The position numbers and the translations under genes were made by a program. From an uncultured Alphaproteobacteria bacterium (GTDB lineage Bacteria > Pseudomonadota > Alphaproteobacteria > JAJFIK01): a stretch of 59,702 nucleotides of DNA. Shown here in pieces: positions 1,672 through 23,656 of the stretch. The DNA lies in assembly GCA_964531285.1 (NCBI GenBank), contig CAZHDI010000010.1, positions 1-59,702 on the forward strand, given 5' to 3'. How positions within the stretch are numbered: position 1 is the stretch's first letter; the number at the start of each line of letters is the position of its first letter. The notes under the pieces are model-generated. The model saw only the letters and a list, made by a program, of their open reading frames with translations, was not told where the DNA came from and did no database searches.

Positions 1672-2739
1672 TCAGCGCGTGGCACGAATGAAATCCAGAA
1701 TCACTTGGGCGACCTGATCGGGGGCGTTTTCCTGTACGAAATGGCCGCCGCCTTTGATTGTGGTGTGGGGGTGTCCCCTGGCGCCGGGAACCCGCTCGAT
1801 AAAGGCTTGATCGCCGCCTTTGGTCACGGGGTCATCATCGGCGAAGGCGCAAAGAAACGGCTTCTCGAACGTTTCATAGAAAGCCCAGGCGCGCCGTTGC
1901 GCATCGAGTGCCGGATCGGTGGGCAAGGTCGGCACGCGGCTCGGCATGGCGCGCGGCCCCATTTTGTAAGCCGGCGACGGGAAGGGGGCGTCATAGGCCT
2001 TGGCCAGCGGGGTCGCCATGAGCGTGCCAAGCCCGATCTTGTAAGCCAGAAACGTCAATGCCTGTTGGGGGCGGCTCATGGGATCCAGCGACATGGACAT
2101 CATGAGTCCGACGGGCAGATCCTCCGTTTCCCAACAGAATTTCTGCCAATAGGCGAATTTGAGGGCCGGTTCCTCGCTGGACATTTTGGAAAGAGCGTTC
2201 GCCATTTGAGGAAGGGTCGGTGTCCTGGCTTCGGCGCGGAAGGCCTCAACCGCTCGGACTGTGTCTTCACCGATGTCGGGATTATACGGAAGACCCGTGT
2301 TCGATATGACCACCCGATCAAAACGGTCGGGATGGTCAGCGATCATCCGTAGGCCGATCAGTCCACCCCAGTCCTGACCGAAAAATGTGATGTTCCGAAA
2401 GTCATTCGCTGTCAACCAGGCGCCCATCCAGTCCACCTGTCGCTGATAGGTGAAATCCTCTCGGGCCGCTGGCTTGTCGGACTTGCCATAGCCGGGCAGA
2501 TCCGGCGCGATCACGCGGCATCCTTCGGCCGTGAGCGGCGGGATCATCTTGCGATAGAGATAGCTCCAAACCGGCTGGCCGTGCATGCACAAAACCAGGG
2601 GGCCATCGCGCGGGCCCTCATCCAGATGATGAATGCGCAGATCGGTACCGTCATCGGTTCGAATGGTGGTGTAGTGCGGGGCGAAGGGATAATCGGCGAG
2701 GCCCGCGAAGCGTTCGTCCGGCGTGCGCACGAGTTTCAT
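1672..2739 (-). CDS. haloalkane dehalogenase-like alpha/beta hydrolase (DhlA/HLD-I type)
   Basis: HGQPVWSYLYRKMIPPL and FFGQDWGGLIGL (nucleophile elbow) closely resemble Xanthobacter DhlA. Start moved to the internal ATG at 2739, which is preceded by GGAGGGG. The track ORF extends to 2790. Confidence 0.85.
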   Translation of the reverse strand: MKLVRTPDERFAGLADYPFAPHYTTIRTDDGTDLRIHHLDEGPRDGPLVLCMHGQPVWSYLYRKMIPPLTAEGCRVIAPDLPGYGKSDKPAAREDFTYQRQVDWMGAWLTANDFRNITFFGQDWGGLIGLRMIADHPDRFDRVVISNTGLPYNPDIGEDTVRAVEAFRAEARTPTLPQMANALSKMSSEEPALKFAYWQKFCWETEDLPVGLMMSMSLDPMSRPQQALTFLAYKIGLGTLMATPLAKAYDAPFPSPAYKMGPRAMPSRVPTLPTDPALDAQRRAWAFYETFEKPFLCAFADDDPVTKGGDQAFIERVPGARGHPHTTIKGGGHFVQENAPDQVAQVILDFIRATR

Positions 2740-3069
2740 AGACCCCTCCATCTTGCGGGCCGTCTGCGCGGCACCCCAATATATTGTCATGGTGACTGAC
2801 AGTATTCAATCCACCCTCAAGCGGCATGTCAATGTCGGTGGCGTCACCCGAGTGGCCATTCGAAGTTGCGGCGGTGACATCCGTCGTGAGACCGGCGGGC
2901 GATTTTCATTTGGCGTTCATTTTTTGACACAACGAGTGTTACGATCATGCCAAGAAGAGCATTCCTTGGCGGTACCGAGCGGTTTGCGCGTGGTGCCGGG
3001 GGGATCGTTGTTCGCATGCTGGGGCAAAGCGCGGGACAACCGGGCCGATGAGAGCGGGAGGCAAGTGAG

Positions 3070-4755
3070 ATGATACGGAAGATCGCATTGGGGTTTGTGG
3101 CGGTGATCCTCATCAGCGCAGCGGTTGTGTGGTTCAACCGTGAAGCGATCGTCATGTTTGTGGTGGCCAATACCGGCAAAGAGGATGTGGCCGAGAACCG
3201 CGCGGTCGAATGGGAGCAGGGCCCCTCAACGCCCGCTACGCTCTCCGGCGAACGGCCACCCAATATCGTTTTCATCCTCGCGGACGATCTCGGCATCAAC
3301 GATATCTCGACCTTCGGTGGCGGTGTGGCCGGCGGCGCCGTCCCGACACCGAATATCGACCGTCTTGCGGCCGAGGGTGCCATCTTCAGCCAAGCCTATT
3401 CGGGCACCGGTACGTGCGCGCCGTCGCGCGCCATGCTCATGACGGGGCGTTATCCGACACGGACCGGATTTGAGTTCACGCCGACACCGCCGGGTATGGG
3501 ACCCATCATGGAGATGCTCGGCAATGCCATGCGGGAAGACTCCGGCCTGCCCGGCGTTGTCTTCAATGAAGAGGCTGCGGACAGTCAGCCAGCGTTCGAG
3601 GACATGGGACTGCCTGCGGACGAAGTGACCATTGCGGAACTTCTGAAGGAGGCGGGCTACCACACGGTTCATATCGGCAAATGGCATCTGGGACGCAACA
3701 CGCCGTTCCGCGCCGTTTCGCAGGGCTTCGACGAAAGCCTGCTGATGGCCAGCGGTCTGTTTCTGCCCGAAGATGATCCGAATGTGGTCAATGCAAAGCT
3801 GCCCTTCGATCCGATCGACCGATTCCTTTGGGCGCGTATGCAGTTTGCCGCCGATTTCGACCATGCCGGTGAGGAGCCCGTCGAGGAGTGGTTCGAGCCG
3901 GGCGGTTATCTGACCGATTATTGGACCGATGAGGCGTTGAAGGTCATCGAGGCCAATAAGAACCGGCCGTTCTTCCTTTATCTCGCCCATTGGGCCACCC
4001 ACACACCGCTTCAGGCAACGCGGGACGACTATGAGGCGGTTGGCGAACTGGAACCGCATCGCCTGCAGGTCTATGCCGCCATGATCCGCGCGCTCGACCG
4101 GAGCGTTGGACGTGTGATGGACAAGCTCGAGGCCGAAGGTCTCGCCGACAATACGATCATCGTGTTTTCATCGGACAACGGAGGGCCTGGCTATATCGGT
4201 CTGCCGGAGGTCAATGCGCCCTATCGGGGCTGGAAGATCACGCTGTTCGAGGGCGGTATTCGTGTCCCGATGTTTGTCAAATGGCCGGGCCGTATCGCCC
4301 CCGGCACGGTGATCGATACACCGGTCGCTCATATCGATGTCATGCCGACTTTGGCCGCGGCCGGCGATGCACCGCTGCCGCAAGGCGTCGAGATCGATGG
4401 CCGCAATATGCTGCCCGCGGCCTTCGGCACGGGGGACATCGATCGGCCGAATGACGCGATTTTCTGGTCCAGCGGCTTTTACAAGGTCGTTCGCGCGGGG
4501 GATTGGAAACTTCAGGTCAATGAGCGCCAGGATAAAGTCTGGCTGTACAATCTAGCGCAAGATCCATCGGAGCAGACCAACCTGGCCGATAGCCGTCCCG
4601 ATAAACGGGCCGAACTGGAGGCCCTGATCGAAGCGCATTGGGCCGATGCCCGCCCGCCGCTTTATCAGCACACGCTGGAAAGCCCTATTCGGCTCGATAA
4701 AACAAATGCCGATCCGGTCAGAGACGACGATGCTTATATCATCTGGCCGAATTGA
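3070..4755 (+). CDS. membrane-anchored sulfatase (arylsulfatase family)
   Basis: N-terminal TM helix. PNIVFILADDLG and the formylglycine motif C-A-P-S-R (TGTCAPSRAMLMTGRYP). Confidence 0.9.
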   Translation: MIRKIALGFVAVILISAAVVWFNREAIVMFVVANTGKEDVAENRAVEWEQGPSTPATLSGERPPNIVFILADDLGINDISTFGGGVAGGAVPTPNIDRLAAEGAIFSQAYSGTGTCAPSRAMLMTGRYPTRTGFEFTPTPPGMGPIMEMLGNAMREDSGLPGVVFNEEAADSQPAFEDMGLPADEVTIAELLKEAGYHTVHIGKWHLGRNTPFRAVSQGFDESLLMASGLFLPEDDPNVVNAKLPFDPIDRFLWARMQFAADFDHAGEEPVEEWFEPGGYLTDYWTDEALKVIEANKNRPFFLYLAHWATHTPLQATRDDYEAVGELEPHRLQVYAAMIRALDRSVGRVMDKLEAEGLADNTIIVFSSDNGGPGYIGLPEVNAPYRGWKITLFEGGIRVPMFVKWPGRIAPGTVIDTPVAHIDVMPTLAAAGDAPLPQGVEIDGRNMLPAAFGTGDIDRPNDAIFWSSGFYKVVRAGDWKLQVNERQDKVWLYNLAQDPSEQTNLADSRPDKRAELEALIEAHWADARPPLYQHTLESPIRLDKTNADPVRDDDAYIIWPN

Positions 4756-6030: not shown

Positions 6031-7356
6031 TCAGTCGGCCTGGAACGCCCGGCGCATGCTGTTCGACAGCGGCGACATCAGATATTGCAGCGGGCTCATG
6101 CGCTCGTCATTGATAAAGACCTCGACCGGCATGCCGGCAACAAGCCGGATCGGATGATCAAGTCGGGTCCGGACGATGTCGATCGCTACGTCGCTCAATG
6201 TCAGGCGGGCCCGGTAGTAAGGTTCGCCGGATACTGGATCCACGCTGAGGTCTGTCGCGATGCTCTCAAGCAAGGCGGATAGCTCAGGTAGATTGCGCTG
6301 GGGCAATGCCGACAGAACGATCTTCGACGTCATGCCTGCCGTCACCGCATCAATGTCCTTCGGCCGCACCCGAGCCTCAATGACAAGCTCTTCCTGGTGC
6401 GGAACGACCTGGAGCAGAATCTGGCCGGGCGCGGCAACGCCGCCAACGGTGTTCACTGCTAGGTCGATGACCTGACCAGCCACCGGTGCACGGACGATGG
6501 CTGCAGCGAGGTCGCGGTCGACACGGGCCAGTTGACGGGATGTGTCGGCGATTTGCCGCGACAGCGCGGCGATGCGCTCCAGCCGGTCGATATCATCCTC
6601 TATGTCGATTTCCACGGTTTGGCGCTCAAGTTGCTCGATCTCATTCGCGGTACGGTGAATATCAGCGGCGAATTCCTCCAACTCGCCCAGAATGGCCGCT
6701 TCCTGCATGGCGAGTTCGTCGATTTCTCCGGACGCGGCGATGCCCCGGTCGGCGAGGGATCGGCGCCGATTAATCACAGTACGGAGAATGCGAAGCTGTT
6801 CGCCCTTGGCATCGCGGGCTTTCGTATAGGCCTTATGTTGAGCCGACAGAGTGCGATGGCTCCGGTCGATCTGGTCAAGAATGGCTGTACGCCGCTCCGA
6901 GCGCCGTCCTATCTGAGCCGCACGGCGGTCCAGAATGTCTTCAAGACGCGCCGCCCTCGCCTGGTCCATCAATCGGTTCGAGAATGCCGGAGGGGCCGTT
7001 CCGGCGGGATCCATCAGAAGTCCTTCCTTCTCCGCCTGGAGAACGATCAAGGAGGTGATCAAGGCATTATATTCCGCTCTTAGGACCGTGGTGTCGAAAG
7101 ATACTAAGGCGTCTCCTGCCGAGACTTCAGAGCCTTCCGTCACATGGATGGTGTCGATCCGGCCGCCTGTCTCATGCTGGATCGTCCGTGTCTCGCCGCG
7201 CGGCATCAATGTGCCCGAGGCAACGACGGGTCGTGGCAAAGAGACCATACTTGCAAATATGCCGGCAAGGACAAGGAAGATCGTTGCCGATATCAAGCCG
7301 ACACGGATAATTGAGGCAGCGAATGTTTGAAATGTCTCTGGAAATGGAGAGGTCAT
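6031..7356 (-). CDS. HlyD-family type I secretion periplasmic adaptor (MFP)
   Basis: N-terminal TM anchor, a long coiled-coil middle and a C-terminal beta-barrel region. The start overlaps the ABC stop (ATGA at 7353-7356). Confidence 0.9.
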   Translation of the reverse strand: MTSPFPETFQTFAASIIRVGLISATIFLVLAGIFASMVSLPRPVVASGTLMPRGETRTIQHETGGRIDTIHVTEGSEVSAGDALVSFDTTVLRAEYNALITSLIVLQAEKEGLLMDPAGTAPPAFSNRLMDQARAARLEDILDRRAAQIGRRSERRTAILDQIDRSHRTLSAQHKAYTKARDAKGEQLRILRTVINRRRSLADRGIAASGEIDELAMQEAAILGELEEFAADIHRTANEIEQLERQTVEIDIEDDIDRLERIAALSRQIADTSRQLARVDRDLAAAIVRAPVAGQVIDLAVNTVGGVAAPGQILLQVVPHQEELVIEARVRPKDIDAVTAGMTSKIVLSALPQRNLPELSALLESIATDLSVDPVSGEPYYRARLTLSDVAIDIVRTRLDHPIRLVAGMPVEVFINDERMSPLQYLMSPLSNSMRRAFQAD

Positions 7357-9506
7357 CCGTTTGCTGCCAGTTTTTGTAAGGTGGTGACGGTCATACGTTC
7401 GAGCAGCAGTTTGGCCTCAAGGGACAGGCGTCCGTCCTTCAGCGTTTGATGAATTTCGTCAACAGCCGATGCGGCCACGGCCAAGCCGAGCTCGGCTGAG
7501 GTCATGCGGCTGGTGTCTTGCGGCATGGAATCGACCAACGCTTGCACGCTGCAGGGCTCAGGGAAGAGATGGTGATCGTACTCGGTGGTTACGACCCAGC
7601 GGATATGTGTTTGCGCAACCTTCAGATGGATCGCGATGGGAGCATCCGTGGGCGACTCCGGTTGGACGTCCGCAATCAGCAGTTTGAAGACCTCTACAAG
7701 GAACAATTCGGAGCGTGCACAGAATTCTTCATCATCGAGATGATTGAGTTGAACTTCCACCCATCGGATGAGCCGTGGCACTTCTCCCAATGTTGGTTGA
7801 AGGTCGATTTGGCTCCGCTTCAAGCTCAAGCGGGCGAGGACTTGCCCCCGGTCCCCAAAGTCCCTCAGCCGCCCGTTGTCGAGCATCATGAGTTTGTCGG
7901 CAACGGCGAGCAACCCGGCCCGCTGAGCGATCAGGACAACGGCGGTACCCTCGCGTTTCAGCGTACCGATCGCCCGGATCAACGCCTGTTCCCCATCTCC
8001 ATCGAGATCTGACGCCGGTTCGTCGAGAACGACGAGACGTGGGCGGCCGAAAAGAGCGCGGGCGAGGGCAAGGCGTCGCAATTGTCCGCTCGAAAGCGGT
8101 GCACCGCTCGCATCGACCGGGGTTGCGAAGCCCTGTGCTGTGTCTCGGATCAATGGCTCCGTCTCGGATCGGATCACAGCATCGAGAATGTCGGCCGGAT
8201 CGGGTGCCGCTGCGAAGCTGGCGATATTCTTGCCGATATCACCTGGAAAAAACACCGGCTGTTGAGGGGCATAGCCGACCATAGCGGCGACTTGGCGCCG
8301 CGAAAGCTGCGTATACGGGACACCGTCGATGGCCATCGATCCCATAGGCGGTGGGCGTATCCCAGCAATTATCTCAGCAAGAATAGATTTCCCGGCACCG
8401 CTGGGCCCTCCAATCGCGAGGCACTCCCCGGGCGCCAAATCGAAGCTGATTCGATCCAACAGGGGTGGCATACCGGGACTGCTCGGTACGGAGATCATCC
8501 GGCCCTGAATATATCCCTTGATCACACCTTTTGCGATCTGGTCCGGACGATCGTCAATAAGCGTGGTGCTGAAGAAGGCCGCGATGCGGCGCCAAGCGTC
8601 GAGCGATGACGACAGGCCGGCCCATGATGCGGCAATCTGTTCACTGGGCGCGAGGGCCTTACCCAGAATGATCGACGCGGCAATCATCGCGCCGCTGCTC
8701 AATTCTCCTCGCAAGACTAGATAGGCGCCGAGCGCCAACACTATGATCTGCACAGATTGCCGCAGAAACCGGGCGAACTGAGATGTTAACGTCTGGCGCG
8801 CAACCGCCTGATAACTCGTACGTAAGCTGGTGTCGGTATCGCGGGCAAAGGTGGACGCCAGATTGCGTTCCAAACCCATTGCTGTGGCGACTGGGCCGGC
8901 TTTCGTCAGGGCATCGACGATTCCCAGAGCTTCCTTTTTTGCAACGATCGCATCGCTTGTCAGCTGTTTCGCTGAATACCATCCCACAACGGACAGCCCG
9001 ACCAGGCTCGCTGAGGCGACCAAGGCGATCACGAGAAAGAGAGGGTGGATTGCCCAGAGTACAATCATGAAAATGATCGACCAGGGTGCATCAATAACGA
9101 TAACGGCGCTTTGCCGGATAAAGGCCGAAACAGTACCAATGTCCTGGAGCGCGATCTTCGTTTGTATCGGATCGCTGGCCATGCGGTCATAGGCATCCCT
9201 GGAGAGGTTCTGCTCGAGCCACATGGCCATCCGGGTCATGAGCATCTGGCGAGTTCCCTCCATCCAGCTCATAATCAGAAAGGCAAGACAGGCAAAGACC
9301 AGAAGTACACCAAGTGTGTCGATATCCTGACTCGGAATGATCCGATCCATGATCTGCATCAGGAAGAGCGGGTTGGTGAGAGCAAGAATATTGACGATTC
9401 CGCCCAAAATCATTGCAACTGCGAATGCCAGCCGTGTGCCTGTCAGGTGATCCCCATACCAACGGCCATGGGGCGGAGTTCGCTGGGGCATGCAACTACC
9501 GATCAA
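7353..9506 (-). CDS. type I secretion system permease/ATPase with atypical C-terminal extension
   Basis: Six-TM ABC exporter domain. Walker A GPSGAGKS, signature LSSGQ, Walker B LVVLDEP. About 157 extra residues follow the NBD. The H-loop reads LIAQR. Confidence 0.9.
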   Translation of the reverse strand: MIGSCMPQRTPPHGRWYGDHLTGTRLAFAVAMILGGIVNILALTNPLFLMQIMDRIIPSQDIDTLGVLLVFACLAFLIMSWMEGTRQMLMTRMAMWLEQNLSRDAYDRMASDPIQTKIALQDIGTVSAFIRQSAVIVIDAPWSIIFMIVLWAIHPLFLVIALVASASLVGLSVVGWYSAKQLTSDAIVAKKEALGIVDALTKAGPVATAMGLERNLASTFARDTDTSLRTSYQAVARQTLTSQFARFLRQSVQIIVLALGAYLVLRGELSSGAMIAASIILGKALAPSEQIAASWAGLSSSLDAWRRIAAFFSTTLIDDRPDQIAKGVIKGYIQGRMISVPSSPGMPPLLDRISFDLAPGECLAIGGPSGAGKSILAEIIAGIRPPPMGSMAIDGVPYTQLSRRQVAAMVGYAPQQPVFFPGDIGKNIASFAAAPDPADILDAVIRSETEPLIRDTAQGFATPVDASGAPLSSGQLRRLALARALFGRPRLVVLDEPASDLDGDGEQALIRAIGTLKREGTAVVLIAQRAGLLAVADKLMMLDNGRLRDFGDRGQVLARLSLKRSQIDLQPTLGEVPRLIRWVEVQLNHLDDEEFCARSELFLVEVFKLLIADVQPESPTDAPIAIHLKVAQTHIRWVVTTEYDHHLFPEPCSVQALVDSMPQDTSRMTSAELGLAVAASAVDEIHQTLKDGRLSLEAKLLLERMTVTTLQKLAANG

Positions 9507-9583: not shown

Positions 9584-11476
9584 TTAGCTGCCGAGATTAA
9601 AACTCTCGTCACTCAGGTCGTCCTTCGCGACGTTTGCCAGAACAATTCTGTCGCCGCTCTGGCCACCAAGGGTCGACAGGTCGATCATGGTCGCCCATCC
9701 CTGATCCTGCATGCTGGCTTGAACGTCCTCCCAGCTGACGTTGTACACAGACAGATCGATGACGTCGCGGCCGACCTCGAAGTCGTGGATCATGTCCTCG
9801 CCCGAACCCGGCTTGAAGACATAAAGGTCGGTTTCGCCGTCGGCAGACCAGTTGCCGCCCCACATGTGATCGTTTCCGGCGCCGCTCTCAATACGATCCG
9901 CGCCGGCGCCGCCGACCAGCTTGTCCGTACCGGCTCCGCCTTTGATTGTATCCGCGCCGCTGCCCGCAATGATTACATCGTTCCCGGCATCGCCGCTCAA
10001 TGTATCCTTGCCAAGACCGCCTTCGATATGATCGTTACCGCTGCCTCCACTGATCGTGTCGTCGCCATCCGCGCCGAATGCCTTGTCATCACCGGAACCG
10101 CCGGTCATGGTGTCGCGGCCGGCGCCACCGAAGAGTTCATCCGTACCGGCATCACCGGCGAGTGTGTCGTCACCGTCGCCGCCGCGCAGGCTGTCCGCAC
10201 CGTCACCGCCGGAGGCGGTATCATTGCCGGCTCCAGCATTGATAATATCATCGCCTGTCCCGCCGAAGCCCGTATCATTTCCGTGTTCGAGGTTGATGAC
10301 GTCGTTGCCATCGTCTCCATACGCGGTATCGTCATCGCGCCCAGCGTTTAGCCTATCTTCTCCGCCGCCGCCTCGTAGCACGTCGTTTCCGGCGTCACCC
10401 AGAAGGACATCCTTCCCCGATCCGCCTTCGATCGTGTCGGCCGCCTTGTCCTGGAGGGCCGGCCCCGCATTCGGATCGACACCCTTGAAGACCCACTCGC
10501 CGTTTTCAAAGGCCCATTCCTTGCCGACCCCGCCGCCGGCCAGCAGGTCGTTACCCTGCATTCCATAGATTGTATCCTCACCCCCCTGGCCTTGAATTTT
10601 ATCGGCGGTTTCCGCCACATCCATCTTGGAGTGAGGGTTCCGGACCTCAAGCGCTTCGGTTTCGGACACGAGATTTTGCTGGAAGTGTGCATTGAGCACT
10701 GTTGCAGTCGACTCGCCGACGTCGACTGTGAAGACGGCGTCATCGTAATCCTTGTCACCCCCGCGGTAGAGGTCTTCAAAGCCGAGCTGAATTGTACCCT
10801 CGTCGGTCTGTGCATAGCCGACAGTATGCGGAATACCGTCCGAGTTCAGTTTGGCTCGGTCACCATAGGCCGCCGTATGATAGGTTGGGTTGTTGAGACG
10901 CGTCTGCGTGCCGTCGTCGCCGACGAAATAGAGGCGCGGGCCGGCATCATCAACGGTGGCCGGTTCGCCTGCATGATTGCGGAACTCGAACTGCCCGTCT
11001 TCAAACTTAGAAAAGTCGTTGGCACTGAATCCGTTGCCGATGATGAAAAAGCCGAGTTGATCCCCGGCTTCGGCTTCGATCGTTGTGCTGCTGACTCCGC
11101 CGATCAAATCACCGCCGCTTCCTTTCAGAGAGGCGTTCTCCCACAAGATTCCAACGTCGTAGATCTCGCCGGTTTCGGCGTCGACCTTGTAGTAGCCCAG
11201 CGTATTGCGATAGCCGGCTTCTTCATAGTCGAAGGTCACCGTGACATCGCGGGCTTCCTGCATCACAATGAGATCTGCAACCGAGATCGTCGCATCCTCG
11301 CTGTCGCCGACAAGCACATCCGCGCCGCGCCCGCCGTCTATGATGTCATTGCCAATGCCGCCTTGGAGTGTATCTTCGCCATCTTGGCCACTCAGATAAT
11401 CGTTTCCGCGGCCAGCAGTATGCTGATCGTCATCATCCGTTCCCACGAAAACCGTGTTCTGATTGCTCGATGCCAT
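9584..11476 (-). CDS. RTX (hemolysin-type calcium-binding repeat) protein with central DUF4114-like domain; probable T1SS substrate
   Basis: Many GGxGxDxUx nonapeptides (GGSGNDHIEGGLGKDTLSGDAGNDVI and others). The central GFFIIGNGFS ... GFEDLYRGGDKDYDDAVF block is DUF4114-like. Acidic C-terminus with no N-terminal signal peptide. Confidence 0.9.
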   Translation of the reverse strand: MASSNQNTVFVGTDDDDQHTAGRGNDYLSGQDGEDTLQGGIGNDIIDGGRGADVLVGDSEDATISVADLIVMQEARDVTVTFDYEEAGYRNTLGYYKVDAETGEIYDVGILWENASLKGSGGDLIGGVSSTTIEAEAGDQLGFFIIGNGFSANDFSKFEDGQFEFRNHAGEPATVDDAGPRLYFVGDDGTQTRLNNPTYHTAAYGDRAKLNSDGIPHTVGYAQTDEGTIQLGFEDLYRGGDKDYDDAVFTVDVGESTATVLNAHFQQNLVSETEALEVRNPHSKMDVAETADKIQGQGGEDTIYGMQGNDLLAGGGVGKEWAFENGEWVFKGVDPNAGPALQDKAADTIEGGSGKDVLLGDAGNDVLRGGGGEDRLNAGRDDDTAYGDDGNDVINLEHGNDTGFGGTGDDIINAGAGNDTASGGDGADSLRGGDGDDTLAGDAGTDELFGGAGRDTMTGGSGDDKAFGADGDDTISGGSGNDHIEGGLGKDTLSGDAGNDVIIAGSGADTIKGGAGTDKLVGGAGADRIESGAGNDHMWGGNWSADGETDLYVFKPGSGEDMIHDFEVGRDVIDLSVYNVSWEDVQASMQDQGWATMIDLSTLGGQSGDRIVLANVAKDDLSDESFNLGS

Positions 11477-11632
11477 TGCATCCTCCTACGATCAGACTTG
11501 AGACCTGATCATGTCATCATATGACTGATTAACATCGCCTCTCGCGTGCCGGTACAAATTTCGAGACTTCTGCCAAATTAACCGATGGGAAAGCGTAATC
11601 CGGCAAGGTGGGCCGTGCCGATAGGAGGGCAG

Positions 11633-13114
11633 ATGAAAGTTCTGTTTGCTGCATCCGAGCTTTACCCGGTGGCGAAGACGGGCGGACTTGGCGATGTCGC
11701 CCATGCGTTACCGTGCGGGCTTCATCGTCTCGGTAAGGATATCCGGCTTGTTCTTCCGGGTTATCCCCAGGTGCTGGACAGCCTGCGAAACTGGCAGGCC
11801 GAAGAGACGGTTTATTTGAGCGCGGGGTTGACTTATCAACCGCTCCTGGGGCGGATCGATGACATTCCTTTTCCTGTTTGGGTCGTTCGCGCTGATCGTA
11901 TCTACCGGACGACTTCTGATCTTTACCCCGCCGATCCGTTGAACCGCTTTCACCGGTTCCTGACCCTGTCCCATGCCTCGGCTCATCTGGCGGCAGGTGG
12001 ATCGCGCACCGGTTGGCGCCCCGACGTTCTTCATGCCAACGACTGGCATACCGGGATGGCCTTCAATATGCTCGACGCCCTAAGCTGTGACGATGTCGCG
12101 CGTGTCTTCTCGCTTCACAATATCGCGTTTGCCGGGGATTTTCCGCTATCTTACGCGGCGCTCTTTTTATCCGAGACGGGTCCGCTGCGCGGCACGCTTT
12201 ATCGCAAATGGGACAAAGTGTCGTTCCTCGAGGAAGCTTTCATCGCTGCTGACAAGATCGTTACGGTCAGTCCGCGGTATGCGGAGGAAATAACCGGCCC
12301 GGAGTTCGGTTTTGGTTTCGAAACACTGTTGCGTCGGCGGCGCCGCGATCTGTCCGGCATATTGAACGGTGTGGATTATGGTGTCTGGCACCCTGAACAG
12401 GACCCGGCGCTCCCGTTTCCGGGTGCCTCGTTTGGCGGGGACGACAAGCGTGCCGCGAAGCGGCTCATTCAGCAGCGCTTTGGGTTGCCGCTGCGGCCCG
12501 ATTCCGTTCTATGCAGTTTCACCAATCGCCTTACGCATCAGAAGATGATCGATGTGGTGATGGCCGCGGCCGAGCGTCTGGCCGGTACGAGATTTCAATT
12601 TGTCTTCCACGGTATGGGTGAGCCTCAGTATCAGGATCACCTCAAGGCGCTGTCCGGCCGGTATCCGGAGGCAATCGCCTATGTGCCAGGGTTCAATGAA
12701 ACACTTGAGCATATGATGCTTGCGGGGGCTGATCTTTGTTTGTCACCGTCCCGATTCGAGCCATGCGGGCTGAATGCTCTTTATGCGATGCGTTATGGCG
12801 CGGTGCCGGTCGTTTGTCCGGTCGGGGGATTTCGCGATACGATCCGGAATGAGTTTTCCGTCAAGCAGAAGGCCACCGGCAATGGGTTCTATATGGACGG
12901 TGAAACCGGGGCGGATCTTGCGGACGTTCTGATCCGGATCGAACGCCTGATGGACGACGGGCCGTACTGGTCTCAGCTTGTTGATACCGTCAAACGGCAG
13001 CACTTTTCGTGGCGCCATGCGGCGCAGCGTTATGTTGCTCTGTACACCGCGGCGATCGAGGCGAGACGGCTGCGTGCGCCGGAGGCCGCCAACCGCCTTG
13101 CCCAGGCCGTGTGA
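11633..13114 (+). CDS. glgA: glycogen/starch synthase (GT5)
   Basis: MKVLFAASELYPVAKTGGLGDV (KTGGL motif) and RFEPCGL. ATG at 11633 is preceded by GGAGGG. The track ORF starts at 11585. Confidence 0.85.
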   Translation: MKVLFAASELYPVAKTGGLGDVAHALPCGLHRLGKDIRLVLPGYPQVLDSLRNWQAEETVYLSAGLTYQPLLGRIDDIPFPVWVVRADRIYRTTSDLYPADPLNRFHRFLTLSHASAHLAAGGSRTGWRPDVLHANDWHTGMAFNMLDALSCDDVARVFSLHNIAFAGDFPLSYAALFLSETGPLRGTLYRKWDKVSFLEEAFIAADKIVTVSPRYAEEITGPEFGFGFETLLRRRRRDLSGILNGVDYGVWHPEQDPALPFPGASFGGDDKRAAKRLIQQRFGLPLRPDSVLCSFTNRLTHQKMIDVVMAAAERLAGTRFQFVFHGMGEPQYQDHLKALSGRYPEAIAYVPGFNETLEHMMLAGADLCLSPSRFEPCGLNALYAMRYGAVPVVCPVGGFRDTIRNEFSVKQKATGNGFYMDGETGADLADVLIRIERLMDDGPYWSQLVDTVKRQHFSWRHAAQRYVALYTAAIEARRLRAPEAANRLAQAV

Positions 13115-13220: not shown

Positions 13221-15704
13221 ATGTCGGGACCTGCACTTTCGCACCAGCCCATGCCGTCAATGATGCCCGGCGATCTCGCCGGACAAATCGCATATACACT
13301 GAAATATGTTCTGTGTATCAATGACGCTGAGATCAGCTTAGGCGACCTCTATGTCGCCTTGGCGCTGAGTGTCCGGAATACCCTTGTTGACGGCCTTGCC
13401 CAGAGCCGGTTGCGCGACCGCAGTCAGGGATGCAAGAAAGTCCATTATCTGTCGATGGAGTTCTTGGTCGGCAAGTGTACGGAGAATAATCTACTCAATC
13501 TGGGTCTCTACGGTGAAGCGGAAACGGCCATCGGTTCTTATGGCTATGCCCTTCCCGATGTCTTGCACATGGAGCATGATCCGGCGCTAGGGAATGGCGG
13601 TCTCGGGCGCCTGGCGGCCTGCTTCCTCGACTCGATGGCGACGCTGGATATCGCCGGGTTTGGTTATGGAATCAACTATGACTATGGCCTGTTCCGGCAG
13701 TCCATATCGAACGGGTATCAGAAGGAGTCGCCGGATGCTTGGCGATCCGATGGGGCGCCCTGGCTTATTGAGCAGCACCACAAGACCAAGATCGTGCCGA
13801 TTTTTGGGAATGTTCTGTCTACGACAGACGGGAATGGTGCCTATAATCCGAGTTGGATGAACTGGCAGACGATTTTGGGTGTGCCATATGATATGCCAAT
13901 CGTCAGCGGAAACGGCACACGGACGAATTTTCTTCGGCTATACTCGGCAAAGGCTTCGGACGAATTCGACATCAAAGTCTTCAATGACGGCGATTATTTC
14001 AAGGCCATAGAGAATAAGATTGACTCGGAGCGGATCTCCAAAATTCTCTATCCTGAGGATAGTCGGGAGGAGGGCAAGGAGCTGCGCCTTCTTCAGGAAT
14101 ACTTCTTTGTTGCATGCGCCATTCGCGACATTGTGGACGACCATCGCCAGCAGGATGGCACGCTGGAGACATTCGCACGTTATAACGCCATTCAGCTCAA
14201 CGACACCCATCCCGCCTTGGCCATTGCAGAGCTCATGCGGCTTATGGTTGACGAACATCGTCTGCCCTGGGAACTCGCCTGGGAGCAAACCCAAGCGGCT
14301 TGTTCCTACACAAACCATACGCTGCTTCCTGAAGCCCTTGAACGGTGGTCCGAACCGCTTCTTGCGCGGGTTCTGCCGCGCCATAATCAGATCATTCGGG
14401 AGATCGACCGGCGCTTTGTTGACGCCATGCTGGCCCGAGGCATCGACCGGGCGGCTATCGATAAAATGTGCATCATCAAAGATAGTAACGATGGCAGCAC
14501 GTCCGAGATCCATATGGCGAATCTGTCGATTATCGGCAGCCATGCGACCAATGGCGTTGCAGCGCTCCATACGGATCTCATCAAGTCGGACCTCGTGCCT
14601 GAGTTCTATCGCGTCTGGCCGGAGCGATTTCAGAACAAGACCAATGGCGTGACGCCGCGCCGCTGGTTGAAGCAAGCCAACCCGCGCCTGGCGGCGCTTA
14701 TCACCGACGCGATTGGGCCCGGATGGATGGACGACCTTTCGGCGCTCCGCGGGCTCGAAGTATTTGCTACGGACAGTCCGTTTCAGGAGAAGTTTCGTGT
14801 CGTGAAGGATAGCGCGAAGCGGGACTTGGCGGCGCTGATCTATACGACAACCCGGATTCGCGTCGATCCCGACACCATCTTCGATATTCAGGTGAAGCGC
14901 ATCCATGAGTATAAGCGGCAGCTGCTCAATGTGCTCCAGATCATCGATACCTATCTTGAGATCAGCGACGGGGGAGCCGTACCGCGAACGCCGGCAACCT
15001 ATGTCTTCTCGGGTAAGGCGGCGCCGGGCTACTTTATGGCCAAGCGCATTATCAAGCTGATCAACGCTGTCGCGACCGTGGTCAATCAAGATCCGACAGT
15101 TTCGCAGCATTTGAAGGTGGCCTATGTGCCCGACTATCGGGTTTCGGTTGCTGAGCGGATCTTTCCGGCGGCAAATCTCAGTGAGCAGATCTCCACCGCC
15201 GGTTTCGAAGCGTCGGGGACCGGCAACATGAAGTTCATGATGAACGGTGCTCTTACGATCGGTACGATGGATGGCGCAAATGTGGAGATTTGCGAAGAGG
15301 CGGGTTCGGAGAATATCTACATCTTCGGTAAATCTGTAGATGAGATCGCCGCCCTCAAAACCGGCGGCTACAATCCGTGGGACTTCTATCATAACAATCC
15401 GCGGATCCAGCGTGTTCTCGATGCCCTCAATAGCGATTTGTTTGCACCGGGAGAGCCGGGTCTGTTCGAGCCGATCTACTATAGCCTGTTGAGCGGCGGC
15501 GATTACTTCTGTTTGCTGGCCGATTTTCAGGATTACGTGGATTGCAAGACCCGCGTCTTGGAGGATTTCCAGGATCAGCAGGACTGGACACGAAAGGCGA
15601 TCCTGAACATCGCCCGATCGGGGAAGTTTTCCTCCGATCGGACGATTGCGGAATATGCGCGGGACATCTGGGGGATTGATCCTTCCAATGCCGGGGCGGC
15701 TTAG
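13221..15704 (+). CDS. glgP: glycogen/maltodextrin phosphorylase (GT35)
   Basis: 827 aa. EASGTGNMKFMMNGALTIGTMDGANVE pyridoxal-phosphate lysine motif, with phosphorylase-like sequence over the full length. Confidence 0.95.
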   Translation: MSGPALSHQPMPSMMPGDLAGQIAYTLKYVLCINDAEISLGDLYVALALSVRNTLVDGLAQSRLRDRSQGCKKVHYLSMEFLVGKCTENNLLNLGLYGEAETAIGSYGYALPDVLHMEHDPALGNGGLGRLAACFLDSMATLDIAGFGYGINYDYGLFRQSISNGYQKESPDAWRSDGAPWLIEQHHKTKIVPIFGNVLSTTDGNGAYNPSWMNWQTILGVPYDMPIVSGNGTRTNFLRLYSAKASDEFDIKVFNDGDYFKAIENKIDSERISKILYPEDSREEGKELRLLQEYFFVACAIRDIVDDHRQQDGTLETFARYNAIQLNDTHPALAIAELMRLMVDEHRLPWELAWEQTQAACSYTNHTLLPEALERWSEPLLARVLPRHNQIIREIDRRFVDAMLARGIDRAAIDKMCIIKDSNDGSTSEIHMANLSIIGSHATNGVAALHTDLIKSDLVPEFYRVWPERFQNKTNGVTPRRWLKQANPRLAALITDAIGPGWMDDLSALRGLEVFATDSPFQEKFRVVKDSAKRDLAALIYTTTRIRVDPDTIFDIQVKRIHEYKRQLLNVLQIIDTYLEISDGGAVPRTPATYVFSGKAAPGYFMAKRIIKLINAVATVVNQDPTVSQHLKVAYVPDYRVSVAERIFPAANLSEQISTAGFEASGTGNMKFMMNGALTIGTMDGANVEICEEAGSENIYIFGKSVDEIAALKTGGYNPWDFYHNNPRIQRVLDALNSDLFAPGEPGLFEPIYYSLLSGGDYFCLLADFQDYVDCKTRVLEDFQDQQDWTRKAILNIARSGKFSSDRTIAEYARDIWGIDPSNAGAA

Positions 15705-15721: not shown

Positions 15722-16684
15722 ATGCGGTTCAAGGCTTTCGATAGGCGGTGCGGAGGGCGAGGCCTTTCGCATGCCGCCATTGGTGTGATCGCCATTGCGT
15801 GTACCGCGTGTGCGTCGCCCCGTCATGACGGCGAGTCGTCTCTGGTCGCCCAGGGGATCCTGTCATCATTCGATGTTCCGCTTAAAGATTTGAGAGAGCG
15901 GCCCGAAGGAGGTGTTATGCGGCGCCTTCTGCACGGCTTTAGTGGCAGTTTGTCTGCCGGCATGCCGCTGGATCTGTCACAGGCAGAAACCACAGAAGGT
16001 GAGGGGCAGCGGGCGCGTGTCGGTAACACGCCGACCCTCAAGGCGACGGTGAAGTACAACCCTGTGAGTGCGTGGTTCGCGACGGGTACGGCCTATATCT
16101 ATCTTGATCGTGATCTTCAGGAGGAGTGGAATCCCGACTTCTCTTATGTCTTCGGGTATGACGATTGGCGCCCTTATACGTTCAGCTTGGTTTATTCGAA
16201 CTATGGCGGCAATCGCTTCAGCCCTGATCGGGCTCAAGGGGCGGAGGTGACCGAGTTCGATGAGGGTACGGTTTCACTGGGATGGAAGTTTCCCATTCCG
16301 GACCGGCTGGCAAAGCCCTTCGTTGTGGCATCAGATGGCGGTATCGGTTGCATCATCGGTTATAACGTCAGTCCACGGTATTTTGACTTGAGATCGTCGG
16401 AGAACCGGTCGTGGAAACAGGCTGCCTCGCTCGGCTGCAAATACATCATCACGGGGAATTGGTATCTCAACTGGACGGCGTTCTATTATCCCAAAGAGTA
16501 TCAACAACAGCCCTGGGACCCGGATTATACCTACGGATTTGGCTACTTCGACTGGCGGCCGGGAACGATTAGTCTTCAGTATAACAATTATTCGGGTAAC
16601 CGTTTTCCAGGGCGGCAGCGCGGTGACGAGACTGGGCGGTTCATCGATGGTGAATTGTCAGTTTCTTGGAGCTGGAGTTTCTGA
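15722..16684 (+). CDS. hypothetical outer-membrane beta-barrel protein with internal duplication
   Basis: Signal or possible lipobox (AIACTAC). Alternating aromatic/Gly-rich strands. Two homologous ~55-aa blocks (W[ND]PD[FY][ST]Y.FGY.DWRP...S[LV].Y[SN]NY[GS]GNRF). C-terminal Phe. The stop lies 2 nt before the next gene. Confidence 0.6.
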   Translation: MRFKAFDRRCGGRGLSHAAIGVIAIACTACASPRHDGESSLVAQGILSSFDVPLKDLRERPEGGVMRRLLHGFSGSLSAGMPLDLSQAETTEGEGQRARVGNTPTLKATVKYNPVSAWFATGTAYIYLDRDLQEEWNPDFSYVFGYDDWRPYTFSLVYSNYGGNRFSPDRAQGAEVTEFDEGTVSLGWKFPIPDRLAKPFVVASDGGIGCIIGYNVSPRYFDLRSSENRSWKQAASLGCKYIITGNWYLNWTAFYYPKEYQQQPWDPDYTYGFGYFDWRPGTISLQYNNYSGNRFPGRQRGDETGRFIDGELSVSWSWSF

Positions 16685-16686
16685 TC

Positions 16687-17934
16687 ATGACGACCGCATT
16701 CTCCTCCATGCTCATCGGACGGCGGAAAAACCTCCTGATCGTTGATGATAGCCAAAGCTTCCGCTTTGTTTTGAAAAAACTGCTGTCCCGCCTCGGTTTC
16801 ACGGTGTTTGAGGCCGGCGACGGCCAGGCCGCGCTTGATATTCTTGCATCCGAGGACATCCCTGTCGTGATCTGCGATTGGGAAATGCCGGGCATGGATG
16901 GTATCGAATTCTGCAGAACGGTGCGGCGTGCCTATCCGGATGACTATAAATATATCCTGATGCTGACGTCCCATGATGAAAGTACGGCCATTGAAGTCCT
17001 TTTCGATGCCGGAGCAGACGATTATATCACCAAGCCACCGGCGATGACGGCTCTGCGTGCCCGTCTTCTGGGCGCCCTGAGGATCGTTTCGCGCTATGAC
17101 GATCTGCGATGGTTCAATAGGGAGCTTCAGGAAAAGAAGGACGCCATCGATAAGTCCTTCGCCAGTATCCGGGACGATCTGCTGGTCGCTGAAACGATCC
17201 AACGTCAATATCTGCCGAATGACTTCGACCCTATTGGTGCGGTTCGCTTCGCCGGGGAATTTTTGCCCGCGTTCCATACGTCAGGCGATATCTTCAATTA
17301 CGTCCCGATCAACGAGACGCAGATTTGTCTGTTTTCGGCCGATGTATCCGGGCATGGCGTGGCGTCGGCCCTCCTTGCCATCACAATCGGTCAAACACTG
17401 TGCTTCGATGGAGATGCGTCGGATGCCACCTTTGTGGTGGATCGGGCCGGCAAGCGCAGAGCGCGTGATCCGGCAGAGGTCGTTGATTGGCTCAATCAAC
17501 GTTTCGCCAATGGCCAGACGGATCATTATTTTACGATAACCTATTGTGTTTTGGACTTGGAAACCTCTGCCCTGCGATATTGTCAGGCAGGGCATTGCCC
17601 GATCATTCGGGTGAATGCGGCCGGTGAGGCATCATTGATCGGGGCCGGGGGGCTGCCGGTTGGAATGCTACCAACCGCCCGATATGAGACCTGTACGATC
17701 GATCTTGAACCTGGTGACCGGATCTATCTCTACTCGGATGGTATCTCGGAAGCCGAGAACGAAACAGATGATATGTACGGACCTGAGTCTATGATGGCAT
17801 CCTTGTCCCAATCGCGGACGGCGTCGCTTGAAGGATCGATCGAACGGCTCTTGCAAGCGGTACAGAGCTGGCAGGCCGCACAGTCTTTCCTTGATGACGT
17901 GTCGATCATCAGTTTCGAATACCAGGCCGCATGA
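16687..17934 (+). CDS. response-regulator receiver fused to PP2C/SpoIIE phosphatase (RsbU-like)
   Basis: REC: LLIVDDSQSF ... VVICDWEMPGMDG ... DDYITKP. PP2C: SGDIFNY ... FSADVSGHGVASAL ... LYSDGISEA. Confidence 0.9.
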   Translation: MTTAFSSMLIGRRKNLLIVDDSQSFRFVLKKLLSRLGFTVFEAGDGQAALDILASEDIPVVICDWEMPGMDGIEFCRTVRRAYPDDYKYILMLTSHDESTAIEVLFDAGADDYITKPPAMTALRARLLGALRIVSRYDDLRWFNRELQEKKDAIDKSFASIRDDLLVAETIQRQYLPNDFDPIGAVRFAGEFLPAFHTSGDIFNYVPINETQICLFSADVSGHGVASALLAITIGQTLCFDGDASDATFVVDRAGKRRARDPAEVVDWLNQRFANGQTDHYFTITYCVLDLETSALRYCQAGHCPIIRVNAAGEASLIGAGGLPVGMLPTARYETCTIDLEPGDRIYLYSDGISEAENETDDMYGPESMMASLSQSRTASLEGSIERLLQAVQSWQAAQSFLDDVSIISFEYQAA

Positions 17935-17960: not shown

Positions 17961-18293
17961 ATGCTTATGACCAAGCGGCAGGAAGGCCAGCGTTTGATCC
18001 TGGCTTTGCATGAAAAACGTCTTGATGCGGCCGTTGCGGTCGATTTCAAGGAGCAGGTTGTTCAAGACGTCGACAGCATTGGGACTGATGTCGTCATCGA
18101 TCTTACGGATGTCGAATTCATCGACAGCTCAGGGCTGGGTGCTCTCGTTGCCGTGCTGAAACATGTGAGCGGGAAGGGCCGACTCGTTCTGACGGGGTTG
18201 CGCACGAAGACCGAGCAGATCTTCAAACTGACCCGCATGGACACGGTCTTCGAAATTTATCCGTCCATTGACGAAGCGCTTGAGGCGGCTTGA
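17961..18293 (+). CDS. STAS-domain anti-sigma-factor antagonist (RsbV/SpoIIAA-like)
   Basis: 110 aa. FIDSSGLGALV contains the canonical phosphorylatable Ser. Confidence 0.9.
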   Translation: MLMTKRQEGQRLILALHEKRLDAAVAVDFKEQVVQDVDSIGTDVVIDLTDVEFIDSSGLGALVAVLKHVSGKGRLVLTGLRTKTEQIFKLTRMDTVFEIYPSIDEALEAA

Positions 18294-18314: not shown

Positions 18315-19505
18315 ATGAAAGCCATGATCCTGTGCGCCGGTCAAGGAACGCGGTTGCGCCCCCTGACTTATGCGGTGCCCAAGCCGATGGTACCCCTCGT
18401 CGACCGGCCCGTGCTGCAGTACATCGTAGAGCACTTGCGCGATCAAGGTGTCGACGATCTCGCGATAAATCTGAGTTATCTGCCGGAGGCGATTCAAAAC
18501 TACTTCCGGGATGGGTCGGCTTATGGCGTGGACGTGACATACTCCTATGAGGGACGGCTCGTCGATGGCGAGTTTAAGGGCGCGGCCATCGGGTCGGCCG
18601 GAGGGCTGCGAAAGGTTCAGGACGAGCTTGATTTCTTTGATGACACGTTTCTGGTGCTCTGCGGCGATGCGGTTATCGATCTCGATATTCGCGCGGCTGT
18701 CCGGCAACACAAAGAGCGCCGGGCCTTAGCGACGATCGTGCTCGCGGATGTGCCGCAGCATGCCGTCTCGAAATACGGGATTGTCGATATGGCCAGTGAC
18801 GGCCGTATATCGGCGTTTCAGGAGAAGCCGGAGATTGCCGAGGCCGTCAGTACGCTGGCAAATACCGGTATTTACATCTTCGAGCCGGAAATCTTCGACC
18901 ATATCCCGACCGGACAAACCATGGACTTGGGCGGGGATCTGTTTCCAAAGCTTACCGAGGGCGGACATGCGATCTATGGCGGGGTCGCCCCCCTTACTTG
19001 GCTCGATATCGGAACCCTTCAAGACTACGCCGCCGCTTCTTTTCGTCTGTTGACTGACCGGTCGGCCGGTATTGATATTCCGGGGCGTGTCGTCGATGAT
19101 CGTTTGCGCACGGGGCCACATGTCACCATGGATCGGAAGGCGGTTACGCTTGAGGGACCGATCTATTTAGGCGGTGGGACGGTTATCGAGGCCGGGGCCC
19201 GCATTATCGGACCGGCGGTCATCGGGCAGAATTGCCGCATCAGCGCGAATGCCGTCGTGCACCAGTCGGTCTTGGGCGATCATGTTCATGCCCGGTCCGG
19301 TGCGATGATCTCGAATGCGGTCATTTCCGGTGGATACTTCATCAATGAAGCCGGTGAATTCATTCATCTGCGCAAATCGGGACCTGTCGGCGACGTGCGT
19401 GAGCCGGCCGGTTCCGGCGCCGATGATATGGCTAGTGACGTTGTCGGCTCTGCGGACGGCGACAGCGCCGTCATCCGTCGGCCGCGACAAGCAAGCGGCC
19501 ATTAG
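18315..19505 (+). CDS. NDP-sugar pyrophosphorylase (sugar-1-phosphate nucleotidyltransferase with C-terminal left-handed beta-helix)
   Basis: MILCAGQGTRLRPLTYAVPKPMVP nucleotidyltransferase signature. C-terminal hexapeptide-like repeats (IGPAVIGQNCRISANAVV). Confidence 0.85.
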   Translation: MKAMILCAGQGTRLRPLTYAVPKPMVPLVDRPVLQYIVEHLRDQGVDDLAINLSYLPEAIQNYFRDGSAYGVDVTYSYEGRLVDGEFKGAAIGSAGGLRKVQDELDFFDDTFLVLCGDAVIDLDIRAAVRQHKERRALATIVLADVPQHAVSKYGIVDMASDGRISAFQEKPEIAEAVSTLANTGIYIFEPEIFDHIPTGQTMDLGGDLFPKLTEGGHAIYGGVAPLTWLDIGTLQDYAAASFRLLTDRSAGIDIPGRVVDDRLRTGPHVTMDRKAVTLEGPIYLGGGTVIEAGARIIGPAVIGQNCRISANAVVHQSVLGDHVHARSGAMISNAVISGGYFINEAGEFIHLRKSGPVGDVREPAGSGADDMASDVVGSADGDSAVIRRPRQASGH

Positions 19506-19506
19506 G

Positions 19507-19974
19507 ATGATGCCGGCCGGGCCGATCGCACAATACCGGATCGCCAGCACATTTCATGCTGTTCGCACCTTGCTCACTGATCTGGGTGACCGTCTTTCCG
19601 GGCAGGTCGATGAAGCAACACTTGCGCGGCTTGAACTATGCTTGGCCGAAGCGCTGAACAACATAGTCGAGCACGGATATCAGGAAAATCCGAATGGCGA
19701 GATCCTGGTGGATACGGACTGGGACGGCGAGGCGGTGCGGACCCGTATCACGGATTTTGGCCGATCCAGTCAAGACGCAAACGGAGCATATCCGGAACCG
19801 GTCCAGGGGCAGCCGGACGATTTGAAAGAGGGTGGGTATGGACTGTCCCTCATTCATACGATTGCCTCGCGCATTGACTATAACTCCGAGGGCGGCCGGA
19901 ATACAACGACGATCTGGCAATCCATAGGGGCAGTGTACCCCGATACGCAGACGGAACGCTTCCCGCAAGCTTAG
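19507..19974 (+). CDS. GHKL anti-sigma-type serine kinase (RsbW/SpoIIAB-like)
   Basis: N-box EALNNIVEHG and G-box GGYGLSLI. ATG at 19507 lies 1 nt after the upstream TAG. The track ORF (19315) overlaps the previous gene out of frame. Confidence 0.85.
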   Translation: MMPAGPIAQYRIASTFHAVRTLLTDLGDRLSGQVDEATLARLELCLAEALNNIVEHGYQENPNGEILVDTDWDGEAVRTRITDFGRSSQDANGAYPEPVQGQPDDLKEGGYGLSLIHTIASRIDYNSEGGRNTTTIWQSIGAVYPDTQTERFPQA

Positions 19975-22313: not shown

Positions 22314-22315
22314 CA

Positions 22316-23644: not shown

Positions 23645-23656
23645 AGGATAGCGCGG

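Follow-up and report, generated by a model that had tools for sequence, protein, structure and literature searches.

We analysed a type I secretion locus in a contig of an uncultured Alphaproteobacteria bacterium (CAZHDI010000010.1). The window, by which we mean the whole stretch of 59,702 nucleotides, encodes a PrtD-type ABC exporter of 717 residues on the reverse strand (7353..9506, by translation of the open reading frame (ORF)), and the present text is concerned with the C-terminal extension of this exporter. The protein is composed of a PrtD-type transmembrane domain (8520..9506), a nucleotide-binding domain (NBD; approximately residues 330-560; 7827..8519) and the extension (residues 561-717, that is 157 residues, and the stop codon; 7353..7826), all read on the reverse strand. 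The first of these is delimited by Pfam ABC_membrane and by NCBIfam TIGR01842, the second by Pfam ABC_tran and the positions of its motifs, and the extension, hereafter the tail, by the ORF translation and by the end of the TIGR01842 match at residue 560. A preliminary description of this DNA had reported an extension of about 157 residues at 7353-7826, which is exact. On the same strand, the exporter gene is directly preceded by a gene for the presumed cargo, a 630-residue RTX protein in which Pfam recognises DUF4114 (9584..11476), and followed by a gene for an HlyD-family type I secretion adaptor (6031..7356), which scores 253.6 bits on TIGR01843 (cut-off 208.65). The TGA stop codon of the exporter gene overlaps the ATG of the adaptor gene in an ATGA sequence.

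The same description held that the ABC proteins of type I secretion normally end soon after the NBD, and this agrees with our survey of tail lengths. In an alignment of 123 PrtD-type sequences, counted after the position aligned to residue 560, the median tail is 21 residues. Long tails were otherwise seen only in P0009 (121 residues), P0113 (295 residues), and P0064 and P0110 (about 65 residues each), none of which has a domain match. P0113 is an 848-residue PrtD-type exporter from outside the window, and its tail, the only one of these inspected over its whole length, is rich in Pro, Gly and Ala and unrelated to the tail studied here. P0113, and apparently also P0009, has a low-complexity or disordered tail; for the family studied here, this was rejected because AlphaFold2 predicts a compact domain.

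Searches with the full-length exporter detected relatives of 669-713 residues that align through the tail. We found the tail in at least 16 relatives, and it is conserved at 15-31% identity. The overall identity to the window exporter is 42-44% for P0002-P0007 and 28% for P0017, P0033 and P0054. Species-representative genomes added a chromosome from a Parvularculaceae metagenome-assembled genome (MAG) and two uncultured Caulobacterales MAGs, JGI metagenomes added L012-L014, and a 90% cluster includes WP_265019890.1 of Cognatishimia activa (Rhodobacteraceae), encoded on a 3.2-Mb contig. There are about 20 tailed sequences, mostly from uncultured Caulobacterales/Parvularculaceae-type MAGs and from metagenomes, several of them Tara Oceans assemblies. 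In a neighbour-joining tree, the tailed exporters form one clade with two subclades (A and B), and the window exporter branches first within subclade A. An exhaustive HMMER search of 1.84 billion representatives returned only two more members of the tail family (P0122 and P0123) and two spurious repeat proteins, and a profile search that looked for the tail domain outside this architecture yielded nothing but two fragments belonging to the tail family (P0125 and P0126). No match was obtained in Pfam and NCBIfam scans of the 157-residue tail, in a profile and sequence search of the PDB, in a plasmid collection or in a first metagenome scan with a subclade A pattern, and a word-index search yielded no identification. 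The tailed architecture is rare, and C. activa is the one named species with a complete genome in which a member occurs.

The ratio of nonsynonymous to synonymous substitution rates (dN/dS) between L010 and L011 is 0.068 over the 151 codons of the tail versus 0.100 for the rest of the gene, and L001 and L003 have an amino acid identity of 68% in the tail, compared with 70% in the core. The tail is thus under purifying selection as strong as that on the pump core. These data bear on the caveat, raised in the preliminary description, that the extension might result from a frameshift or a fusion artefact. A sequencing or assembly error, a frameshift or an accidental read-through into the downstream gene is hardly credible here, since the same architecture appears in independent assemblies from NCBI, ENA, JGI and Logan, since selection acts on the tail, and since the gene ends in the coupled ATGA junction with the adaptor gene. 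The recurrence in independent assemblies, together with the purifying selection, rules out a frameshift or fusion artefact and supports the tail as a genuine domain that is fused to the exporter at its C-terminus and maintained by selection.

An AlphaFold2 model of the tail, based on a 12-sequence alignment, has a mean predicted local distance difference test (pLDDT) score of 83.3 and a predicted TM-score (pTM) of 0.79. By AlphaFold2, Foldseek and hhalign, the folded core (residues 564-701; 7404..7817, reverse strand) is predicted to be an RsbW/SpoIIAB-type GHKL (Bergerat) fold. Its elements run in the order β1 (566-569), α1 (573-586), α2 (593-612), β2 (624-630), β3 (634-641), a lid helix (654-660), α3 (670-680), β4 (684-690) and β5 (693-701), and a terminal helix is weakly predicted. 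In a Foldseek search of the PDB, the 18 best matches are all anti-sigma serine kinases, namely RsbW of Bacillus subtilis (6M36/6M37), SpoIIAB (1TH8, 1THN, 1TID, 1TIL and 1L0O), UsfX from mycobacteria (8IH8 and 8JZT) and Rv1364c, through its RsbW domain (3KE6). These 18 matches have E-values of 2.9e-5 to 1.2e-3, a probability of 1.0 and root-mean-square deviations of 2.7-4.7 Å, and the target-normalised TM-scores are 0.68-0.82 for the single-domain chains; the best match is 6m37_C (E = 2.9e-5, TM-score 0.80). The CA domains of histidine kinases come next, with weaker scores. Among the 50 Foldseek matches listed, almost all of which are of the GHKL type, there is no TOBE, NIL or ACT-like fold, nor is there a Pfam match to such a domain.

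The preliminary description had noted by eye that the tail runs collinear with the RsbW-like kinase encoded elsewhere in the window, and hhalign aligned the tail profile with this kinase over 116 collinear columns (probability 19%) and with a five-member RsbW/SpoIIAB profile over 107 collinear columns (probability 59.8%, E = 8.8e-5). Two subclade B tails match Pfam HATPase_c_2 (PF13581) over almost the whole model, with E-values of 0.011 and 0.024. The best score of the family on this model is 16.1 bits, below the gathering score of 27.4, and the tail of the window exporter has no match. Taken alone, the evidence for the fold at the sequence level is therefore weak (16 bits against 27.4 in Pfam; 60% in hhalign), and the fact that the predicted structure is based on 12 sequences likewise counts against our assignment. 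The tail might be some other α/β domain, with its likeness to RsbW an artefact of the shallow alignment, and the 12 sequences available to AlphaFold2, the sub-threshold Pfam matches and the empty PDB sequence searches would all fit this explanation. We regard it as improbable because three independent lines, namely the 18 best Foldseek matches, hhalign, and HMMER against Pfam in two members, agree with one another, and because the order of the elements matches that of RsbW along the whole length.

A second AlphaFold2 run with the NBD and the tail together reproduced both folds and the secondary structure of the tail. In this model, the linker residues 558-561 have pLDDT values below 50, the pTM is 0.58 and the two domains have no confident arrangement with respect to each other. 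The low values for the linker and for the two-domain model suggest that the tail is tethered to the NBD as a module and is not rigidly integrated into it. When the two-domain model was used as the Foldseek query, the matches were PrtD, the LipB NBD and many other exporters, covering only the approximately 230-240 columns of the NBD; the best of these were PrtD (5L22, 38% identity) and the LipB NBD. The arrangement of an NBD followed by such a tail is absent from every solved ABC structure matched by Foldseek.

We examined the tail for the sequence motifs of GHKL kinases. In the alignments, Glu605 (codon 7692..7694, reverse strand), which is invariant across the tail family, is aligned with the N-box Glu of RsbW (Glu49 in Bacillus subtilis). 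Four residues later, Leu609 (codon 7680-7682, reverse strand) occupies the position where Asn is expected. This column never contains Asn in the tail family and is hydrophobic or Gln in all members. The G1 (DxGxG) and G2 (GxGxG) boxes are also gone, as the 12-member alignment has no conserved Asp or Gly at the positions of RsbW D83/G85 and G110/G112. The loss of the Mg-binding Asn and of both glycine-rich boxes indicates that the tail is a pseudokinase incapable of canonical ATP binding. Taken together, the alignments and the structural model make it very probable that the tail has an RsbW/SpoIIAB-type GHKL fold and is a pseudokinase. The preliminary description had proposed a degenerate RsbW-type GHKL fold, which the predicted structure bears out, and had pointed to the missing N-box Asn and G-box glycines, which the alignments reproduce; its wording, a pseudo-kinase or protein-binding module, fits these results. 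The invariance of the N-box Glu might be taken to mean that the tail is still an active serine kinase or ATPase that, for all the divergence of its motifs, phosphorylates the cargo or a STAS protein, but this is very improbable, as the Asn that serves as the Mg ligand is replaced in all members and none has a DxGxG or GxGxG motif.

In comparison with RsbW, SpoIIAB and UsfX (HATPase_c_2; 6M36/6M37, 1TH8/1TID/1TIL, 1L0O and 8IH8), the tail has the same predicted fold, the same order of elements and a similar size of about 140 residues, and it keeps the N-box Glu. It differs in lacking the N-box Asn, G1 and G2, in scoring below the Pfam threshold and in being fused to a membrane ABC exporter rather than free-standing. 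Because it fails these three defining sequence features as well as the Pfam threshold, the tail is not an RsbW, and it should be described as RsbW-like in fold. An origin by recent duplication of the neighbouring RsbW gene was also considered but is not supported, since the tails of subclade B match HATPase_c_2 no less well although no RsbW gene neighbours them, and since the tail family is monophyletic and older than the split of the subclades.

A further ABC protein gives a separate observation on the distribution of the tail. Locus L005 encodes a second, very divergent ABC protein of 658 residues (2217-4193, reverse strand) without an ABC_membrane match, accompanied by an HlyD-like gene at 1004-2152. 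The C-terminal 130 residues of this protein align with positions 10-144 of the tail profile (12.4 bits; E = 0.014 among the ORFs searched), and tblastn ties it to the subclade B exporters across the junction of NBD and tail. Judging from this paralogue, kinase-like tails may occur on a wider set of ABC proteins.

The exporter to which the tail is attached is itself not entirely typical. Pfam assigns ABC_membrane to residues 30-277 and ABC_tran to residues 350-498, and TIGR01842 (the PrtD-type model of NCBIfam) matches residues 23-560 against model positions 3-544 of 544 with an E-value of 6.3e-128 and a score of 427.7 bits (cut-off 510.15). The NBD has a Walker A motif (GPSGAGKS) from residue 367, a signature motif (LSSGQ) from residue 471 and a Walker B motif (VVLDEP) from residue 492. 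In our motif survey, the H-loop position is occupied by Gln528 (7923-7925, reverse strand) in the context LIAQRAG. By its sequence, the exporter is a divergent PrtD-type protein, with a score below the NCBIfam cut-off and Gln at the H-loop. His is replaced by Gln here in every tailed exporter of subclade A, whereas subclade B keeps His, and His is present in 111 of the 123 PrtD-type relatives in the alignment survey. In HlyB, hydrolysis depends critically on the H-loop His, and the degenerate site of TAP1 naturally carries Gln. By analogy, Gln528 hints at a slowed or modified ATPase cycle in subclade A. Like the exporters of the PrtD/LipB/HasD type (TIGR01842; 5L22 and 5X7K), the window exporter matches the transmembrane domain and the NBD over their full length, is without an N-terminal C39 or CLD domain (none was found in the Pfam and NCBIfam scans) and belongs to an operon with an HlyD-type adaptor and an RTX substrate. 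It differs in its score below the cut-off of the family model, in a folded 157-residue C-terminal domain that all other sampled relatives lack and, as in the rest of subclade A, in the Gln of its H-loop. The start codon of the exporter is uncertain (region 9413-9506): it may be the TTG at 9506, the ATG at 9491 or the NCBI call at Met32. The last gives the NCBI protein P0001 of 686 residues and would remove residues that can be aligned with homologues.

In ABC exporters, the NBDs end close to the two-fold axis, which the C-terminal zipper helices of TM287/288 illustrate. RsbW, as seen in its crystal structure with RsbV, dimerises through strand β1 and helix α1 (PMC7340262). RsbV docks on RsbW helices α1-α3, with hydrogen bonds from Arg23, Asp42, Lys44/Ser48, Glu49 and Tyr118, and Glu49 contacts the phospho-acceptor Ser56 of the STAS protein (PMC7340262). 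The residues that are invariant in the tail family are I567 and L569 in β1, L579 and W582 in α1, D592 in the α1-α2 loop, and E605 and F607 in α2. Thus, the invariant residues in β1 and α1 lie in the elements of the RsbW dimer, and those in α1 and α2 lie within the α1-α3 surface contacted by RsbV. R578, one position off the column of RsbW Arg23, is invariant in subclade A and is replaced by Asp in subclade B. RsbW-type proteins are obligate dimers through β1 and α1, the best-conserved elements here, and the exporter, too, is a homodimer; a pairing of its two tails beneath the ATPase domains is therefore most likely. The paired tails would resemble an RsbW dimer placed under the NBDs and would serve as a regulatory docking platform that exposes two partner-binding faces (α1-α3). 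Occupancy of these faces by a partner would modulate NBD closure and hence the secretion of the RTX (DUF4114/DUF6923) protein. We consider it reasonably probable that the tail is a partner-binding regulatory module of this kind.

The same conservation of β1 and α1, the RsbW dimer interface (PMC7340262), would also suit a simpler role, in which the tails pair like an RsbW dimer and only hold the ATPase domains together without any ligand. Such a passive clamp would be comparable to the C-terminal 'handshake' extension of the ABC ATPase MlaF, which promotes NBD dimerisation and can be replaced by artificial dimerisation (PMC7367683), or to the C-terminal zipper helices of other exporters. The Gln at the H-loop of subclade A, if it reflects an altered ATPase cycle, might create a need for such extra tethering of the NBDs, but subclade B has the tail and yet keeps the His. 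A clamp also leaves both the invariant Glu at the former active site and the conservation of α2 unexplained, and a folded domain of 140 residues under strong purifying selection exceeds what a clamp needs. We therefore consider a purely passive clamp unlikely.

The gene neighbourhoods were compared in 13 distinct loci, with up to 10 kb on each side and less on short contigs. The adaptor gene follows the tailed exporter gene in every locus, and an RTX gene with DUF4114 and/or DUF6923 lies directly upstream wherever upstream sequence is available. In the window, the cargo matches HemolysinCabind (1.7e-75) and DUF4114 (7.4e-12) of Pfam. The nearest tail-less relatives, P0008 and P0010, have different cargo genes alongside. 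These associations might indicate that the tail binds, in the cytoplasm, either the C-terminal signal of the RTX (DUF4114/DUF6923) substrate or the substrate itself while it is unfolded, and the absence of an N-terminal accessory domain from the exporter would agree with this. The tail would then be a C-terminal functional analogue of the N-terminal CLD of HlyB, a domain that serves protein binding. HlyB-type exporters likewise have an additional cytoplasmic domain, C39 or CLD, in which the catalytic residues of the parent enzyme family have been lost, although it is N-terminal with a papain-like fold, whereas the tail is C-terminal with a predicted GHKL fold. However, co-occurrence with a cargo gene is expected of any feature inherited with the operon, and the divergent ABC paralogue of L005 seems to carry a similar tail without an adjacent RTX gene. 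We also know of no RsbW-type domain that binds unfolded β-roll proteins, which counts against cargo docking. On balance, we assign this function a low probability.

With regard to the cargo itself, its C-terminal part of about 200 residues (9584-10200 in the window; counterparts in L002, L005, L009, L012 and L013) is 50-60% identical across both subclades. The exporter (32-44%) and the adaptor (22-40%) are less conserved, although the RTX repeats inflate the figure for the cargo.

If the tail is a partner-binding module, a possible partner is encoded in the window itself. A set of genes on the forward strand encodes a fusion of a response-regulator receiver and a PP2C (SpoIIE-type) phosphatase (REC-PP2C; 16666..17934), a STAS anti-sigma-antagonist-type protein of 110 residues with the canonical phospho-acceptor motif DSSGLG (17961..18293) and a bona fide RsbW-type serine kinase (19507..19974), with a gene for a nucleoside triphosphate (NTP) transferase (18315-19505) between the last two. 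The first two proteins were identified from their translations and orthologues: the orthologues of REC-PP2C in L001 and L003 are annotated as Response_reg and SpoIIE (49% identity), and those of the STAS protein carry Pfam STAS (60% identity). The kinase has an intact N-box (EALNNIVEH), G1 (DFG) and G2 (GGYG), it matched RsbW (6m36) at 6e-7 and SpoIIAB at 7e-6 in a PDB sequence search, and its orthologues carry HATPase_c_2. We noted no sigma factor gene in this cluster on reading the ORFs and annotations, although no dedicated search was made. This adjacent partner-switching module, apparently without a sigma factor, makes the STAS protein, in its unphosphorylated form, the leading candidate partner in this genome. 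In favour of this candidate, the gene set also adjoins the operon in L001 and L003, although the secretion operon has another position and orientation there than in the window and although the exporter tree places the three loci on two branches of subclade A that are not sisters. The REC-PP2C protein would be a candidate input of the module, its linkage to the exporter being hypothetical. In the proposed pathway, REC-PP2C would dephosphorylate the STAS protein, which would then dock on the exporter tails in competition with the free RsbW kinase and thereby switch RTX/DUF4114 secretion on or off post-translationally.

Several observations weigh against this interpretation. The conserved residues of β1, α1 and α2 could simply form the hydrophobic core. 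SpoIIAB has its highest affinity for the STAS partner when nucleotide is bound, and nucleotide binding has apparently been lost in the tail. The set of REC-PP2C, STAS, NTP-transferase and RsbW genes adjoins the operon in 3 of the 13 loci (the window, L001 and L003), in the same gene order; in the other ten, including all of subclade B and five loci of subclade A, tblastn and local HMM searches detected no STAS, PP2C or RsbW gene in the available flanks. A STAS partner, if there is one, would thus usually be encoded elsewhere. The module also sits inside an α-glucan cluster, with a GT5 synthase gene (11585-13114) and a phosphorylase gene (13221-15704) in the window, to which L001 and L003 add an amylase and a GH77 enzyme. 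The real output of the module may be glucan metabolism rather than secretion. We therefore treat the STAS protein as a tentative partner of the tail, possible rather than probable, and find it rather doubtful that the tail is the output receiver of a partner-switching pathway that lacks a sigma factor and gates type I secretion. The preliminary description had combined a STAS-binding-type module with gated secretion; its structural part has held up, whereas STAS gating is a candidate mechanism, given that the module adjoins the operon in only 3 of 13 loci. Control of secretion by STAS is plausible, but not general across the tail family.

Comparable arrangements are found in other systems. The closest functional precedent for a STAS protein acting on an ABC ATPase is MlaF-MlaB, in which the STAS protein MlaB binds directly to the helical subdomain of the MlaF NBD and controls the ATPase (PMC7367683). 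Nevertheless, the extension of MlaF is an unfolded arm of about 25 residues rather than a kinase-like domain, and Mla is a lipid transporter rather than a type I secretion system. In MalK, MetN and ModC, folded C-terminal domains pair beneath the NBD dimer and regulate the ATPase (PMC7367683). These domains are found on importers, not exporters; their folds are different, and their ligands are small molecules or EIIA. An RsbW-type domain within a multidomain protein is found in Rv1364c of Mycobacterium tuberculosis (3KE6; Foldseek E = 1.2e-3), a fused RsbU-RsbW-RsbV protein; there, however, the phosphatase and STAS partners of the domain are part of the same polypeptide, which is a soluble regulator without a transporter. 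Partner switching with outputs other than sigma factors occurs in Bordetella, where BtrU/V/W act on type III secretion, and in Vibrio fischeri (SypE/SypA). We know of no partner-switching system that acts by way of an anti-sigma-like domain forming part of a transporter.

Descriptions of type I secretion usually treat the transporter itself as unregulated. Among accessory domains of the ABC proteins in this pathway, only the N-terminal, papain-like C39 peptidase and CLD are known to us. In full-text searches of the literature, we found no report on a C-terminal domain of type I secretion ABC proteins or on RsbW pseudokinases, and a kinase-like tail on a type I secretion pump appears to be unreported. 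With a conserved C-terminal domain that descends from an anti-sigma-factor kinase, the ABC component would gain a third class of accessory domain; such a domain also suggests that secretion is under direct post-translational control. RsbW-type modules, and possibly STAS partner switching, would then reach beyond transcription, and the tail would be a natural example of a GHKL pseudokinase retained purely for protein binding. Gating by STAS, if true, would be the first example of a secretion ATPase that is controlled directly by partner switching, via a built-in domain resembling an anti-sigma factor. The member in Cognatishimia activa makes this idea testable, if the strain is culturable and genetically tractable.

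Other genes accompany the tailed operon. Between the phosphorylase and REC-PP2C genes, the window encodes a 320-residue protein (15722-16684) with no Pfam match and with repeated YxNYxGNRF-type motifs; it is 66-68% identical to its counterparts in L001 and L003, and always lies between these two genes. Just downstream of the RsbW kinase gene, there is a GT2 glycosyltransferase gene followed by four tandem DUF3131 paralogues (20472-28578). The tailed operon has DUF3131 genes at its flanks in L005 (subclade B), L010 and L011 as well, and this association thus spans both subclades, while that of the STAS module does not. Literature searches on DUF6923 or DUF3131 returned no relevant report. Lastly, a hybrid histidine kinase of 840-847 residues (HisKA-HATPase_c-REC) is encoded in L009 (11876-14419), L010 (4082-6604) and L011 (3998-6520). 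These three loci belong to subclade A and are without the STAS module; in each, the kinase gene is next to the tailed operon, and the kinase may be an alternative regulatory input.

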